From contig CAZYAB010000001.1 of assembly GCA_964645705.1 (NCBI GenBank), forward strand, positions 16,749 to 80,748: DNA of 64,000 nucleotides, read 5' to 3'. Both the position numbers and the translations under genes were made by a program. Below are positions 4,064 through 54,252 of this stretch, piece after piece. The notes beneath the pieces are model-generated. The model saw only the letters and a list, made by a program, of their open reading frames with translations, searched no databases and was not told the DNA's origin. The stretch is from an uncultured Methanosarcinales archaeon (GTDB taxonomy: Archaea > Nanobdellota > Nanobdellia > Woesearchaeales > CAXGTL01). Within the stretch, counting starts at the first letter, position 1; every line of letters starts with the position of its first letter.

Positions 4064-4549
4064 TTAACTCTTTTTTCTTACTTTAATCATATCGCCTATT
4101 GTCAATCCTTCTGAATTACCTTTTGCTTCAATTGCATGATGAATCTCTTCATGTTCTTGAATAAGATCTATTCTGAAGAATCTTTCAAGTTTTTCAGCAA
4201 GTTTGATTGATGGTTTGAATGTTCCTGACTCTATTTTATGAATCACTGATTCTTTTTCATTTATAAGTTTTGCAACTTCTTTTTGTTTTAATCCTTTTCT
4301 TTCCCTTGCATTCTTCACAATATTACTAAAATTAGGGATAATCATTTGAATTATTTCTTTTTCAGGTTTAAGTTTAACTTTAGCAACTGACTCAACGTTT
4401 TTCTTCTTTTCTTTTTTCATAACAGGCATCACTATTTCTTTTACTTTACCAAACAAACTGCACGCTTTACAAACCTTTAGGTCACTCCCTTCTAAAGAAA
4501 TAACATACATTTTTCCAACGTCTGAGCCACACATATTGCATGATGTCAT
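4064..4549 (-). CDS. mbf1: archaeal multiprotein bridging factor 1 (aMBF1): zinc ribbon + HTH XRE-type
   Basis: C-x2-C...C-x2-C zinc ribbon (CNMCGSD...CKAC) followed by a helix-turn-helix (LKQKEVAKLINEKESVIHKIESG). The ORF-track extension to 4621 has no homology and overlaps the tRNA-like element, so the start is taken at MTSCNMCG. Confidence 0.7.
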   Translation of the reverse strand: MTSCNMCGSDVGKMYVISLEGSDLKVCKACSLFGKVKEIVMPVMKKEKKKNVESVAKVKLKPEKEIIQMIIPNFSNIVKNARERKGLKQKEVAKLINEKESVIHKIESGTFKPSIKLAEKLERFFRIDLIQEHEEIHHAIEAKGNSEGLTIGDMIKVRKKS

Positions 4550-4585
4550 TATTTCACCTATCATAAATACAAATATGAATAAAAA

Positions 4586-4761
4586 TGGGGCGGCAACCGA
4601 GACTTTCAAGACATTATCCATTTGAACTCGGCCTAGGGGATATCAACCCACCCATTATAACATAAATATTTGTATAAGTGAATGATAATTTCTAGATGGT
4701 CCACAGTCCCCCGTGCTGTTACCCACCTGTTTGGCAAGTTCCAGGCTACACCATTGCCGCC
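4586..4761 (-). tRNA. candidate tRNA-His(GUG) gene interrupted by up to three introns (D-loop, canonical 37/38, T-loop), encoded CCA
   Basis: GC-rich island in AT-rich DNA. On the minus strand, G-1 (4761) and acceptor GCGGCAA (4760-4754) pair with UUGCCGC (4596-4590), C73 (4589) and CCA (4588-4586). The anticodon stem GGGGA (4711-4707) / UCCCC (4640-4636) is 5/5 bp, and the loop CUGUGG|A holds anticodon GUG (4704-4702). A 59-nt insert follows G37. T-arm CCGAG-UUCAAAU (4631-4620) is completed by CUCGG (4601-4597) after an 18-nt insert. D-stem GUGU (4751-4748) / GCAC (4716-4713) encloses 31 nt. Confidence 0.55.
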
Positions 4762-6319: not shown

Positions 6320-6664
6320 TTAATTCTTAAGATTCATAATAGCTTTTGCAAGGTCGCCTTCTGCTTCTCTAATTGCATTCATTGCTTCTTCTTCACTACA
6401 ACCACATTGTTCAACAACAACCTTAATATCGTCTTTACTAATTTCTGGTTCAGTATCAATAGATCTTTCTTCAAAACTTCCTGCAACCTGAAAAGTTTCT
6501 TGCCCCATAGCATTGACCTTGCTTACACTAGGGTTTTGAAAAACCAATTCTTTATCTTCTAATCTAATGATAACTTCTTTTGCATCAATTTCTTCTTGCT
6601 TCATACCCATTTTTTTCATAGCTTGCTTCATCATCTTTGGGTTAATATTCATTCCTGGAAACAT
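6320..6664 (-). CDS. nac: nascent polypeptide-associated complex protein (archaeal NAC alpha; NAC domain + C-terminal UBA)
   Basis: MKQAMKKMGMKQEEID...EVIIRLEDKELVF (NAC domain) followed by DIKVVVEQCGCSEEEAMNAIREAEGDLAKAIMNL (UBA-like). The length (~114 aa) fits. Confidence 0.8.
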   Translation of the reverse strand: MFPGMNINPKMMKQAMKKMGMKQEEIDAKEVIIRLEDKELVFQNPSVSKVNAMGQETFQVAGSFEERSIDTEPEISKDDIKVVVEQCGCSEEEAMNAIREAEGDLAKAIMNLKN

Positions 6665-6934: not shown

Positions 6935-6949
6935 GTGGAGGGGAAATAT

Positions 6950-9103
6950 ATGGCAAAAAAAAAACAAGGATTAGTACGAAGAATAGCTAGTGCAACAGCT
7001 CATAAAGTTGTTTCTTTAGCAAATGAATATGATAGTAGTGCACCAGCTCAAGAAGAAAAACCAAAGGAACCAGAAGAAGAATATGTTTTAAAACCTGAAG
7101 ATGTTTATTTCAAGATTGGCGATTCAGTTTATGGAACAACAGCTGCAACAAGAGATGTAAAGATAGGTTATGGAATGTGTATCAAAGGATTAGTTTATAC
7201 TGACGAGAGTATTGAACATATTAATGAATTAGAAGGTTCTCAAATTCTTAATGATCTAAAATCAAGTGTTATGTATAATTTTGTAGAAAATATTCTAAGA
7301 CATAAATTTTCAGGAGATAAATTAGATCCAACAGGAAGAGTACGTGCATTTCAATTACTAACTTATGGTACAAAAGTGGAAACTCCTTGTAAAGACTCAA
7401 AATTAGTTGATTTTTACAAAAATCAATTAAAGAAGAAAAAAGATACAGGACTTGTAATCATAGACGAAAGAACTGTTTATATGGATTTACTTAGAAAAAC
7501 TTACAGAGACGGATATGTAGAATTAGCTAGAGATAGATTAACAGAGATGTTAAAGGATACAGATTTATTAGATAATGAAGCATCTGTTGACGAAGCAGTT
7601 GCAATGGTCTATTCAGGACTTGATGACTCTCAAAAACAAAAATTAGCTAAAGGATTTAAAGAATCAGGAAAAGGACAAATAACTGAAATTACGCACGCTA
7701 TTGCAAGATTATTTTACATAGATCCTACAAAAGAATCAAAACCAACAAAAGAAATTGAAAGTAGAATAAAATCTAATCTTGTTAATGAAATGATAAGATC
7801 TTCAGTACAACCAACATTTAATGTAAAAGACAGATTACTGGCTCTTGCAAGTCTTTTCAAACAAGAAGAAGATAAAGCAGAGATTGATGCAAAAACATTG
7901 AAGAGATTTACTTCTGAAAAAGAATATCATATATTCGGTAATGAGGAACACTTTGATGCACCAACTTTAGAAGAAATGAGTAATGAAATTAATACTCACG
8001 TAAATCTAAAGATGATGCCTGTTGCAAGACAGATTGCATTACAGCAACAAGAACTCAAACAAAAATTGTTGTCTTATAGTGGAAAATCTGATGAACAATT
8101 GGGTGATCAAGAAAGAAAAGAAAAGCAAAGACTTGATGACGAAGCAAAGAAACTTAATGAACAACTTGAATTTGAAAAGGAAGCATATATTAAAACTCAT
8201 TTGGCTAGACTACAAACATTCATCAATGCAGAAGAAACAGTTGAAGTTAAAGATAAAGTAGAAAAAGGAAGAGCAGAATCAGCAATGGGTTTTAAAGATA
8301 CAAAAAGTAAGCTTAGAAGATACTCAGGACGTGCTGGTTTAGTAACTACATTGATATTATTGGGAGCAAGTGCTTGGTATTCTAAAACAGGCTTAGAATT
8401 AAATGAAACAAAATATATGAAAGGTCTTGGTCGTGCATCACCAACAGAAATCGCGTGGGCAATGTTTAGTGATCCTGAATTACCAGATACAATCAACCAA
8501 TACCTGTTACTTCAAGTTTCAGGCGCAACAGAAGCAATTGCAAGTAAAGTAGATGGTGTTACAACCACAATTGGAGACAAGGTTGACGGCGCAACAATAA
8601 CAATCGGTGAAAAGGTTGAAGGTGTAACAACTACAATTGGCGAGAAAGTAGAGGGTGTTACAACAACAATCGGTGAAAAGGTTGAAGGCGTTACAACCAC
8701 AATTGGAGACAAGGTTGATGGAGTTACAACAACAATCGGTGAAAAAGTTGATGGTGTCACAACTACAATTGGAAGTAAAGTTGATACAGCTGTTTCAGGC
8801 GTAGCAACATCAATTGGTGAAAAAGTAGATGGCGCTGTTTCAGGCGTAGCAACAACAATTGGAGATAAAGTTGATGAATATGCTGGAAGTGTTGAATCAA
8901 TCCAAGATAACATAGAAGCTGAAATACAAGCACAAATGAAAACAGTTGTTGACAGAATATCTGCTCTTGAATCAAAAGCACAATTAACACCTGCTGAAAA
9001 GAGTGAACTAGAAATGCTAAAACAGAATGTTGGTGGTCTTGTAAACACTGTAAACTATCTTAGAGACAAATTAAGACAAGTGAGAAAAGCCAACAGCAGA
9101 TAA
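6950..9103 (+). CDS. membrane-anchored coiled-coil protein with 11-residue tandem repeats (hypothetical)
   Basis: ATG at 6950 is preceded by GGAGGGG. A ~460-aa N-terminal soluble part is followed by one TM (GLVTTLILLGASAWY), then ~10 tandem 11-aa repeats (TIGEKVEGVTT) and a C-terminal coiled coil. No signal peptide. Confidence 0.6.
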   Translation: MAKKKQGLVRRIASATAHKVVSLANEYDSSAPAQEEKPKEPEEEYVLKPEDVYFKIGDSVYGTTAATRDVKIGYGMCIKGLVYTDESIEHINELEGSQILNDLKSSVMYNFVENILRHKFSGDKLDPTGRVRAFQLLTYGTKVETPCKDSKLVDFYKNQLKKKKDTGLVIIDERTVYMDLLRKTYRDGYVELARDRLTEMLKDTDLLDNEASVDEAVAMVYSGLDDSQKQKLAKGFKESGKGQITEITHAIARLFYIDPTKESKPTKEIESRIKSNLVNEMIRSSVQPTFNVKDRLLALASLFKQEEDKAEIDAKTLKRFTSEKEYHIFGNEEHFDAPTLEEMSNEINTHVNLKMMPVARQIALQQQELKQKLLSYSGKSDEQLGDQERKEKQRLDDEAKKLNEQLEFEKEAYIKTHLARLQTFINAEETVEVKDKVEKGRAESAMGFKDTKSKLRRYSGRAGLVTTLILLGASAWYSKTGLELNETKYMKGLGRASPTEIAWAMFSDPELPDTINQYLLLQVSGATEAIASKVDGVTTTIGDKVDGATITIGEKVEGVTTTIGEKVEGVTTTIGEKVEGVTTTIGDKVDGVTTTIGEKVDGVTTTIGSKVDTAVSGVATSIGEKVDGAVSGVATTIGDKVDEYAGSVESIQDNIEAEIQAQMKTVVDRISALESKAQLTPAEKSELEMLKQNVGGLVNTVNYLRDKLRQVRKANSR
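8553..8880 (+). repeat. 33-nt tandem repeat array (about 10 units) inside CDS
   Basis: Near-identical 33-nt units (acaac[at]acaattgg[ac]ga[ag]aa[ag]gt[at]ga[ag]gg[tc]gt…) encode the TIG[ED]KV[ED]GVTT repeats. Confidence 0.85.
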
Positions 9104-51858: not shown

Positions 51859-54252
51859 GTGGTAAAAATTCAAGAAAATAATGGAAATATCCAAGAAGAT
51901 AAAAATATAGATACTCAAAAGGAACCAGGTGAGTCTATTGATAAATCTAAAGAATTTGAAAATAAAGTAAAAAAAGAAGAAATAGAACAAAAAATTGAAA
52001 CAACAGACTCAAAACAAAAAAAACTAAAATTTAATTTAAATTCATTTAAAAGAGTAACTATAGCTTGGTTTAAAAATCCTTGGAATTTAGCTTTTTTATT
52101 TTTGCTTATTGTTGTGTTTTTTATTTATTGGAATAATTTATTTGTTGATAGTATTTGGTTAGATGAAACTGCTTATGATTGGGATGCTCAGTTGCTTAAA
52201 CATGATTTATCACATTTTTCAAATATAAAAAATTGGGGCTCTATATTCCCAGTTACTGTTATTTCATTCTTTAATATTTTTACAACAAGCTTTAATGCAG
52301 GAAGGTTAATGGCTTTATTTTTTGGTCTTTTAGGCATAGTATTTACATATTTTGTTGGAAAAGAGATAAAAAATGAATTTGTTGGTTTATCTGCAGCATT
52401 TTTATTAGGGATACATCATTGGTATCGGTTTTTATCAATGAAAGCTTTATTAGATGTCCCATTAGCAACCATGACTATTATTTCTGCCTTTTTTTTAATT
52501 AAATGTTTTAATGATTTTAATTTTAAATGGTTAATCTTATTATTAATTTCAGCAACATTAGCAACTCTTACAAAGTTATCAGGATTTATTATTTGGTTAA
52601 TGATTTTTATTTGTTTAGTGGTATTTTTAATAGTACATAAACTCTCATTAATAAAAAAATATTCAAAAACTAAATATTTGGTTCCTGGTTTAATATTATT
52701 AATCATTTTGACATTTTTAATAATAAAAAGCCCTATAGGGGAATTTGTAATCTTTTCATTTTTAACAAGAGTAACTTTTCAATATGTTATTGCGACATAT
52801 AAAACAATGGGCGGTTTTTTAAGTGGGATTATTGTTTTATTAATGATTATTGGTTCTTTACTAACTTTTTTTTATAATAAGATAGAATATTATGTTTTAT
52901 TTATTATGAGTCATTTATATTTATTTTTATCAGCAATTTCAGGACAAAGTTTGGGTGTTCCTGAATTGAGATATTTGCTCCCTGTTTTGCCTTTCTTTTA
53001 TATTCTTTCAGTTGTATCTCTGGAAGAAATAAAACATTTTATTTTAATTTTTTTTAAAGATAGAAAAATGATAAAAATTTCATTAGTTGTGTTACAAATA
53101 ATAATTTTACTTTTTGTTGCAAACACATATTACAAGACTGGTAGTATGATTCTAGACCAAAAGAATGTTGCATATTCTGGTTATGTTGAAGCTATGGATT
53201 GGGTCAATGAAAATATACCTCCCGGTAATAATAATATCACTGGTTATCATGCTAAGGATTATTCATATGATCCAGATAATTATGTGGATGATCTTTATAT
53301 TAAGAATTATTTTTCATGCTGTAGTTATAATGTTGGTTTAAATAATGATGATATAAGAAGAGTAACAAGTTTTAATAAATTTAAAACAATAGACAATTTT
53401 ACAGACCATATATCTTCTAATAATTTTTCTGTAGTATTTCTTAATCCAGATATGTGGGAACCTGGTCAACCAAAATGGGTTAATATGGGTACATGGCCTT
53501 TTTTGATATTGTTTGACCCAAACACACAGCAAGCAATACAACAAATAGATTATAAACAATTTCCTCAATATAAAGCAATCATTGATTTAGGATTTGAAGA
53601 AGTAAGAGTAATAAAGAGAAAAGCACTTCTTCCTGTTATAGACATAACAAATAATAATTTCCTTGGTCAACAATATATGGATGATGTTCCTGTTAATATC
53701 CTTTTTAAGATGGAAATAGAAAAACAAGAACAAGGTAAAAACATGAAAGAAGAATTAAAAGATGAAATAAAAGAAGAAAATAAAGTAACCAATAAATTAT
53801 CTATAATTGAAACGAACTTAGGAAATATAACAATTGAACTAGCACAAGATAAAGCACCAATAACAACAAAGAATTTTATAAATTTAATAGAAAAAGATTT
53901 TTACAATAATTTAACATTTCATAGAGTTATCAAAGATTTTATGATACAAGGTGGCGATCCTAATGGCGACGGAACTGGTGGTCCTGGTTATACAATAGAA
54001 GATGAATTTCATCCAGATCTTAAGCATGATAAAGGCGTTATATCAATGGCAAATTCAGGGCCAAATACTGGTGGAAGTCAATTTTTTATCACTGTTGTTG
54101 AAACACCTTGGTTAGATAATAAGCACAGTGTATTTGGGAAAGTTGTTGAAGGAATTGGTGTTGTAGAGAATATATCAAAAATTGAAACTGGTGCAAATGA
54201 TAAACCTATTGAAGATGTTGTAATTAAATCAATAAAAATATTAGATAAGTAA
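51859..54252 (+). CDS. fusion protein: GT-C (PMT/ArnT-like) polytopic membrane glycosyltransferase + C-terminal cyclophilin-type peptidyl-prolyl isomerase
   Basis: N-terminal ~550 aa with more than 10 TM helices and SIWLDETAYDWD (first-loop DE motif). C-terminal ~165 aa: FHRVIKDFMIQGGDP…GGPGYTIEDEF…ISMANSGPNTGGSQFFIT…HSVFGKV is a cyclophilin signature. Confidence 0.75.
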   Translation: MVKIQENNGNIQEDKNIDTQKEPGESIDKSKEFENKVKKEEIEQKIETTDSKQKKLKFNLNSFKRVTIAWFKNPWNLAFLFLLIVVFFIYWNNLFVDSIWLDETAYDWDAQLLKHDLSHFSNIKNWGSIFPVTVISFFNIFTTSFNAGRLMALFFGLLGIVFTYFVGKEIKNEFVGLSAAFLLGIHHWYRFLSMKALLDVPLATMTIISAFFLIKCFNDFNFKWLILLLISATLATLTKLSGFIIWLMIFICLVVFLIVHKLSLIKKYSKTKYLVPGLILLIILTFLIIKSPIGEFVIFSFLTRVTFQYVIATYKTMGGFLSGIIVLLMIIGSLLTFFYNKIEYYVLFIMSHLYLFLSAISGQSLGVPELRYLLPVLPFFYILSVVSLEEIKHFILIFFKDRKMIKISLVVLQIIILLFVANTYYKTGSMILDQKNVAYSGYVEAMDWVNENIPPGNNNITGYHAKDYSYDPDNYVDDLYIKNYFSCCSYNVGLNNDDIRRVTSFNKFKTIDNFTDHISSNNFSVVFLNPDMWEPGQPKWVNMGTWPFLILFDPNTQQAIQQIDYKQFPQYKAIIDLGFEEVRVIKRKALLPVIDITNNNFLGQQYMDDVPVNILFKMEIEKQEQGKNMKEELKDEIKEENKVTNKLSIIETNLGNITIELAQDKAPITTKNFINLIEKDFYNNLTFHRVIKDFMIQGGDPNGDGTGGPGYTIEDEFHPDLKHDKGVISMANSGPNTGGSQFFITVVETPWLDNKHSVFGKVVEGIGVVENISKIETGANDKPIEDVVIKSIKILDK

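Follow-up and report, generated by a model that had tools for sequence, protein, structure and literature searches.

A tRNA-His(GUG) gene with three predicted bulge-helix-bulge introns in an AT-rich marine DPANN archaeon

A 64,000-nucleotide stretch of archaeal DNA from contig CAZYAB010000001.1, referred to here in its entirety as the window, contains on its minus strand at positions 4761-4586 a 176-nt locus that reads as a tRNA-His(GUG) gene of four exons separated by three inserts (Table 1; residues are numbered by the tRNA convention). Read directly from the minus strand, GCGGCAA pairs with UUGCCGC to give a 7-bp acceptor stem, G-1 lies opposite the discriminator C73, and CCA is encoded. 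The D-stem GUGU/GCAC encloses 31 nt in the raw sequence, the anticodon stem GGGGA/UCCCC closes a loop (CUGUGG|A) that is broken by a 59-nt insert, and the T-arm CCGAG/CUCGG closes a loop (UUCAAAU) that is broken by an 18-nt insert. The histidine identity elements, which are the anticodon GUG at 4704-4702 and the G-1 (4761)/C73 (4589) pair, are kept in all five lineages compared below and in a related intron-less gene, L093. An earlier sequence-only reading had proposed a tRNA-His(GUG) gene with introns in the D-loop, at 37/38 and in the T-loop and with G-1 and CCA encoded, and had listed the 7-bp acceptor stem, the G-1:C73 pair, the 5-bp anticodon stem, the T-arm, the GUGU/GCAC stem around 31 nt and the 59-nt insert at 4700-4642. 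The re-read minus strand agrees on every one of these elements, and the proposal as a whole is borne out by the direct read, by ARAGORN after excision, and by the orthologues, L099 and L093.

Table 1. Exons, introns and flanking features of the tRNA-His locus, in window coordinates.
Feature	Positions	Strand	Content
Exon 1	4741..4761	-	G-1 (4761), GCGGCAA (4760-4754), U8, G9, GUGU (4751-4748), D-loop A14-G19 AGCCUGG
Intron 1 (D-loop)	4719..4740	-	22 nt, AACUUGCCAAACAGGUGGGUAA, G19/C20 junction
Exon 2	4701..4718	-	C20, A21, GCAC (4716-4713), G26, GGGGA (4711-4707), C32 U33 G34 U35 G36 G37
Intron 2 (anticodon loop, canonical 37/38)	4642..4700	-	59 nt
Exon 3	4621..4641	-	A38, UCCCC (4640-4636), 4-nt variable loop UAGG, CCGAG (4631-4627), U54 U55 C56 A57 A58 A59
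Intron 3 (T-loop, 59/60)	4603..4620	-	18 nt, UGGAUAAUGUCUUGAAAG
Exon 4	4586..4602	-	U60, CUCGG (4601-4597), UUGCCGC (4596-4590), C73 (4589), CCA (4588-4586)
Oligo-T run	4581..4585	-	TTTTT directly 3' of CCA; putative archaeal transcription terminator
aMBF1	4064..4552	-	archaeal flanking gene
NAC	6320..6664		archaeal flanking gene

Among the GC islands of the window this locus ranks first (60% over 187 nt against a 27% background) and is the sole intergenic one, the three weaker islands all lying within long open reading frames (ORFs); the exons themselves are 65% GC in a window of 27% GC. No further intergenic GC island or tRNA-like island was found in ~10 kb beyond each window end (~20 kb total), and the ~84 kb examined (window plus flanks) yielded no further tRNA. 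A run of five or six T residues follows CCA in all five lineages, and is a likely archaeal transcription terminator. The upstream regions of the lineages are AT-rich and contain TATA-like boxes, and no convincing common promoter could be aligned across them.

When positions 4740-4719, 4700-4642 and 4620-4603 are excised in silico, the four exons join into a 77-nt sequence, GGCGGCAAUGGUGUAGCCUGGCAGCACGGGGGACUGUGGAUCCCCUAGGCCGAGUUCAAAUCUCGGUUGCCGCCCCA, which ARAGORN draws as a perfect tRNA-His(gtg) cloverleaf of 76 nt plus G-1. The product has a 7-bp acceptor stem, a 4-bp D-stem, 5-bp anticodon and T-stems and loops of standard size, including a 9-nt D-loop reading AGCCUGGCA, and it contains all of the universal nucleotides (U8, A14, G18G19, U33, G37, G53-U54-U55-C56-A57-A58 and C61). 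The predicted exon-exon junctions are GCCUGG|CAGCAC, CUGUGG|AUCCCC and UUCAAA|UCUCGG. A split or permuted tRNA gene was ruled out, since the four exons are colinear on one strand within 176 nt. With only two of the inserts removed, ARAGORN mis-draws the 5' half. The raw locus returned nothing from ARAGORN (default, intron mode or relaxed score), and Rfam gave nothing relevant either, whether at its gathering threshold or at E<=10, with RF00005 and the group I/II introns included; the expectation that standard finders would miss the gene thus held for both tools.

A further alternative is that the locus is not a tRNA gene at all, the candidates being an N-terminal extension of aMBF1 (ORF 4064-4621, 185 aa), some other structured RNA, or an arrangement of group I/II introns that splice themselves. 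The coding alternative draws on the gene callers of several assemblies (L001, L003 and L005), which stretch the aMBF1 ORF to 185 aa on the minus strand, across the tRNA 3' exon and the T-loop intron. Against it, the ATG at 4552 is preceded by a GGTGA Shine-Dalgarno sequence and fits the homologue start consensus MxCxMCGS, and a shorter aMBF1 is called in other assemblies such as L002. On these start-site features we take 4552 to be the true aMBF1 start and the 185-aa form to be an annotation artefact, arising because the tRNA is unannotated. Another RNA family or a group I/II intron is opposed by the absence of any Rfam match at gathering or permissive thresholds. The ribozyme core of group I and II introns exceeds ~200 nt and has conserved P3-P9 or domain V structure; inserts of 18, 22 and 59 nt are far too short to be self-splicing introns of these kinds. 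A non-tRNA identity for the locus is barely credible.

The insert boundaries were analyzed for the bulge-helix-bulge (BHB) motif, using the layout of the canonical archaeal 37/38 intron, 5'-h-H(4)-bulge(3)-h2 ... h2'-H'(4)-bulge(3)-h'-3'. On each strand of a BHB, cleavage follows the second bulge nucleotide, a rule consistent with the 37/38 geometry in the window. All three inserts show BHB geometry exactly at the junctions dictated by the cloverleaf. At the T-loop, UUCA (54-57) forms four Watson-Crick pairs with UGAA between the bulges AA|U and AG|U, and the T-stem serves as the outer helix; the inner helix consists of four contiguous pairs by pairing count, or of 3 bp (GGA/UCU) in the hand-drawn structure. 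With its two 3-nt bulges and perfect 4-bp helix this is a full, strict hBHBh' motif, and the sequence-only description of it as merely a relaxed BHB/hBH motif applies to some of the relatives but not to the window. The anticodon motif is near-strict: three of the four central positions pair in CUGU (32-35)/GUUG, the bulges are GG|A and AU|A, the inner helix CCAUCUA/UGGGUGG has 7 bp, and the outer helix is provided by the anticodon stem, so that the motif is flanked by 6-bp and 7-bp helices. The D-loop motif is relaxed, with all four central pairs formed between GCCU (15-17a) and GGGU (two of them G.U), bulges GG|A and AA|C, a 5-bp inner helix ACUUG/CAGGU, and the D-stem as the outer helix.

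The significance of these pairings was evaluated by holding the exons and junctions fixed, shuffling each intron, and counting how often pairing at least as good as that observed was obtained. The frequencies were 4.5e-5 for the D-loop, 4e-4 for the anticodon loop and 1.8e-3 for the T-loop, giving a joint probability of ~3e-11 if the three motifs are independent. An unconditioned BHB scan of the precursor returned 212 loose candidates; with so many in AT-rich sequence, the junction-conditioned test is the meaningful one.

Placement of the junctions draws on the relatives as well as on BHB geometry. ARAGORN accepts nearly any D-arm deletion of 19-27 nt, so the D-loop junction cannot be fixed by that program alone. 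The junction at G19|C20 (4740-4719) is instead fixed by two genes without the D-loop insert: L099 reads GUAGCCUGG|CAGCAC, that is, GCCUGG|CAGCAC, precisely the predicted junction, and L093 reads the same. This register also places a polymorphic base (A or G, first intron position) inside the intron, with the result that the mature tRNAs are identical there across lineages. For the T-loop, the 18-nt insert noticed in the sequence-only reading is present and its removal gives the same product, but its position moves by one nucleotide, from 4619-4602 to 4620-4603. The resulting 59/60 site is required by the BHB geometry, and also by the introns of L007 and L010, which start with A rather than U; in these two, no other junction yields the conserved mature sequence.

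The D-arm is where an alternative course of processing has to be considered, in which the tRNA-His is genuine but not every insert is removed as proposed, the D-arm insert being either retained as an expanded D-loop or excised in the register 4739-4720. Hand analysis indeed allows two registers for the D-loop BHB, with three central-helix pairs in common and energies of -32.65 and -27.95 kcal/mol, calculated on a structure whose T-arm contained an unrelated coordinate error, and both the mismatch in its outer helix (see below) and the tolerance of ARAGORN for D-loop variants are compatible with such a course. The 4739-4720 register would, however, give the D-loop AGCCUGGAACA, and it was rejected because the insert-free L099 and L093 both read AGCCUGGCA, which is obtained only from 4740-4719. 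A retained insert would leave a 31-nt D-loop that disrupts the tertiary contacts between G18G19 and the T-loop, and the low shuffle frequency of the D-loop motif is a further argument against either variant. Alternative processing of the D-arm is accordingly judged quite improbable.

Comparison with related loci sets the exons apart from the inserts. The 176-nt locus is unchanged in six strain-level contigs, and in four more distant lineages the gene sits among the same neighbors, ordered NAC, three small ORFs, tRNA-His and aMBF1, with aMBF1 proteins that are 68% (L007), 59% (L097/L098), 59% (L099) and 56% (L010) identical to that of the window. Among the five versions, the exons vary at 1 of 77 positions (nt 26, which is G in the window and A in the others), and the relatives match the window at 76-77 of the 77 exon nucleotides; exon 1 is the same in all five lineages, and exon 3 is the same in all five and in L093. 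The inserts differ widely in length. The D-loop intron is 22 nt in the window, 39 nt in L007 and in L097, 27 nt in L010 and absent from L099; the anticodon intron is 59 nt in the window, 17 nt in L007, L097 and L010, and 15 nt in L099; and the T-loop intron is 18 nt in the window, 34 nt in L007 and L099, 13 nt in L097 and 40 nt in L010. Intron interiors are largely unrelated in sequence between lineages, but the bases that pair with the exons are not free to vary. The H' strands GGGU of the D-loop intron and UGAA of the T-loop intron are invariant wherever those introns occur, and the intron partner of C32-U35 is GUUG, AUAG, AUUG, ACAG or GCAG, one-sided changes that never leave fewer than three of the four pairs with CUGU. 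The T-loop introns of the four relatives (13-40 nt, same site) all end in UGAAAG, and their inner helix is only 0-1 bp in L097, L099 and L010, a relaxed hBH/BHL-like form. Judged from these comparisons, the exons and the BHB bases show the mark of purifying selection.

A metagenome scan with the internal exon returned four matches. One belonged to a known lineage, two were fortuitous and lay in coding DNA of high GC, and the fourth was L093, an intron-less tRNA-His on a 46% GC contig from another metagenome. L093 differs from the predicted spliced product at the compensated 6:67 pair (A-U to C-G) and at nt 26, and its CCA is not encoded; it scores 54.9 bits on RF00005 (threshold 29). Among 80 species-representative Woesearchaeota/Nanoarchaeota genomes, none has a tRNA-His within 1.5 kb of aMBF1; the synteny is therefore clade-specific and led to no additional orthologues. 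The GC island, the ARAGORN cloverleaf, the BHB shuffle frequencies and the repetition of the exon/intron pattern in four other lineages together confirm that a tRNA-His(GUG) gene with three introns lies here, far beyond what chance would produce.

The same data bear on whether the gene still works. A decaying tRNA-His pseudogene with three random insertions, its function being served by a working copy elsewhere, would account for the rejection of the raw locus by standard detectors and for an anticodon insert far longer than those of the relatives, and a second, intron-less tRNA-His could lie outside the ~84 kb examined. Decay is difficult to reconcile with exons that vary at one position while the neighboring aMBF1 is only 56-68% identical and the inserts diverge freely. 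Random insertions would not be expected to place BHB geometry at each exact junction or to contain pairing bases that are conserved or co-vary, and the exons have kept a GC content of 65% in a genome of 27% GC. Such a decaying copy is thus highly improbable.

We conclude, with a probability of roughly 93%, that the locus is a functional tRNA-His(GUG) gene of a DPANN archaeon, the three BHB introns of which are spliced out to give a 77-nt tRNA. The conclusion starts from what is observed directly, namely the gene anatomy, the BHB geometry, the in-silico spliced product and the cross-lineage conservation. Under this interpretation, the minus-strand transcript would be a ~176-nt precursor with introns after G19, at 37/38 and at 59/60. 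At each site the 3' part of the intron would pair with the four exon bases just 5' of the 5' splice site, creating a 4-bp helix with a 3-nt bulge at either end; EndA would cut the BHB after the second bulge nucleotide of each strand, and an RtcB-type ligase would join the four exons. Splicing is expected to yield a 77-nt tRNA whose 8-bp acceptor helix includes G-1:C73 and whose CCA is genomically encoded; RNase P would leave the encoded G-1 in place, and HisRS would recognize G-1:C73 and the GUG anticodon. Because each motif is local and independent of the other two, the introns should not have to be removed in any set order. A broad-specificity EndA is implied by the sequence features of the locus, because two of the three introns occupy non-canonical sites and several motifs depart from the strict form, in the outer helix at the D-loop and, among the relatives, in the inner helix at the T-loop.

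Several points weigh against this conclusion, in addition to the possible second tRNA-His copy already mentioned. In the D-loop BHB, an A14.A21 mismatch breaks the outer helix, and the central helix of the anticodon BHB includes a U.U mismatch (at U33) and two G.U pairs. The cloverleaf with three BHBs is feasible by calculation, at -42.6 kcal/mol, and the centroid structure recovers the T-loop BHB and the D-intron hairpin, but the predicted global minimum lies lower, at -58.6 kcal/mol, and the fold z-score of the precursor is a modest -2.18. Neither an EndA nor an RtcB domain was found among the 40 window ORFs scanned. Transcription, EndA cleavage, exon joining, survival of G-1 through 5' processing and charging with histidine are attributed to this gene by analogy with established archaeal tRNA splicing.

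The length of the anticodon intron, 59 nt against 15-17 nt in the relatives, is explained by ~42 additional nucleotides that form an AU-rich hairpin in the loop of the ancestral intron (especially 4653-4671). Perfect BHB geometry is found in this hairpin in two registers, which 0.6% of shuffles match, and its removal would not give back the short intron form. It is possibly a nested intron within the intron, or possibly a product of chance. C/D-box motifs were not found in the 59-nt intron.

The variation among lineages also raises the question of intron turnover. Four lineages have the D-loop intron and a fifth lacks it precisely, and intron lengths vary up to four-fold between close relatives, but that BHB introns are still turning over in this marine DPANN clade is a tentative idea that we consider unlikely on present evidence. 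The neighbor-joining aMBF1 tree is poorly resolved and gives no direction for gain versus loss of the D-loop intron. If the D-loop intron were a recent gain and the host EndA were of the alpha4 type with only the L3 loop, the clade would offer a natural system for watching BHB insertion, and a simple homotetrameric EndA would be handling strict and relaxed motifs at three sites of one tRNA.

Two features upstream of the gene were noted in relatives. In L010 (2693-2790; also in L011, L012 and L095), ~100 nt upstream of the tRNA-His, there is a copy of the first 13 nt of the tRNA, GGCGGCAAUGGUG, followed by a ~70-nt GC-rich segment with a strong fold (minimum free energy -34.1 kcal/mol, z = -3.2). 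The copy and the folding segment have no Rfam match and are absent from the window and the other lineages; the segment could be a small RNA, a scar left by recombination or integration, or what remains of a disrupted gene. In L007 (2280-2345) and L098 (1220-1275), a G-rich stretch, GAGUGGGUGGAGGGGAAGUGGGUUUGGUGGG, lies upstream of the tRNA-His; it is atypical for a ~27% GC genome and is not in the window.

The flanking genes NAC and aMBF1 are archaeal, and the nearest named aMBF1 homologues belong to metagenome-assembled genomes of Woesearchaeota, Nanoarchaeota and Nanoarchaeia. The best species-representative genome reaches only 50% aMBF1 identity, and a Tara mesopelagic sample is the recorded source of the L010 sister lineage. 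Judged from its genes, the host is an uncultured, AT-rich marine DPANN archaeon that is Woesearchaeota/Nanoarchaeota-like and, because of the low aMBF1 identity, appears to represent a lineage without a genome among the species representatives.

Genes of this general type are known. Multi-intron tRNAs have been tabulated for Crenarchaeota, Nanoarchaeum equitans, M. kandleri, Korarchaeum and ARMAN-1/2 (PMC4033280) and for Thaumarchaeota (PMC8450103), and the listed non-canonical tRNA intron sites include 20/21, 22/23 and 59/60 (PMC4090602). The novelty suggested by the sequence-only reading, which had treated three-intron tRNAs as known mainly from Thermoproteales and a few other archaea, was therefore overstated, as multi-intron tRNAs are documented outside that order, including in mesophilic Thaumarchaeota, N. 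equitans and ARMAN-1/2 (PMC4033280, PMC8450103). Like the multi-intron tRNAs of Thermoproteales (Pyrobaculum, Thermofilum) and Thaumarchaeota (Sugahara et al. 2007/2008; PMC8450103), which have up to three BHB introns per gene, the window gene combines a canonical 37/38 intron with non-canonical D- and T-loop introns and strict with relaxed BHB motifs, and is missed by standard finders. It differs from them in its host, a 27% GC marine DPANN archaeon rather than a member of TACK, and the host EndA is probably not an (alpha-beta)2 enzyme with the L1 (Crenarchaea-specific) loop, to judge by published work (PMC5829648).

Parallels exist within the same superphylum. N. equitans has both split tRNAs, tRNA-His among them, and multi-intron tRNAs, and in ARMAN-1/2 multi-intron tRNAs are cut by an epsilon2 EndA (PMC4033280, PMC3239211, PMC5829648); these archaea share with the window host a small AT-rich genome and non-canonical or multiple introns that depend on a broad-specificity EndA. 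Unlike the split genes of N. equitans, the window gene has its four exons colinear at one locus and is neither split nor permuted. It resembles the intron-less archaeal tRNA-His with encoded G-1, as seen in L093, in its 8-bp acceptor helix with G-1:C73, its GUG anticodon, its 4-nt variable loop and its D-loop AGCCUGGCA, but takes three splicing events to reach that form and encodes CCA. Kaneta et al. (2018), who analyzed one Woesearchaeota and one Pacearchaeota genome, expected 'unidentified disrupted tRNA genes' in genomes of these groups, and DPANN EndAs, often of the alpha4 type with the L3 loop, have been associated with increased tRNA gene disruption (PMC5829648). The literature searched contained no description of this lineage, of the window gene or of a three-intron tRNA-His in Woesearchaeota-like archaea, and a prior record of an intron site directly after G19 was not confirmed there. 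Both the gene type and the mechanism are already known, and the window gene is a well-supported new example that adds no new mechanism.

The example nonetheless has consequences for annotation and comparison. Pipelines of the ARAGORN or Rfam type would report tRNA-His as missing from such DPANN genomes, and in several assemblies a spurious N-terminal extension of aMBF1 fills the gap. Apparent tRNA gaps feed claims about DPANN genome completeness and host dependence, so that recognizing genes of this kind corrects those inferences. The locus adds a marine, Woesearchaeota/Nanoarchaeota-like lineage that is mesophilic and AT-rich to those with documented three-intron tRNAs, and supports the expected presence of hidden disrupted tRNA genes in DPANN (PMC5829648). 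The five lineages, with the same sites, variable introns and one precise absence, form a comparative series that is useful for studying the BHB needs of DPANN endonucleases and the gain and loss of introns.

Elsewhere in the window, a 722-aa ORF at 6935-9103 (plus strand) contains tandem 11-residue repeats (GEKVEGVTTTI / GDKVDGVTTTI) and has a weak Apolipoprotein-like Pfam match. Strain contigs call this ORF with differing lengths or split (L001 1562-3715, L004 1308-3462), and it may encode a variable repeat protein. Most of the window, from ~27800 to 63500, is densely occupied by genes for glycosyltransferases, sugar epimerases/dehydratases, nucleotidyltransferases, PMT/STT3-like transferases, SAM methyltransferases, B12/radical-SAM enzymes and a flippase, and by its predicted gene content looks like a large surface-glycan biosynthesis island. 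Within this cluster, an unusual fusion at 51859-54252 joins a PMT-like membrane domain to a cyclophilin domain.

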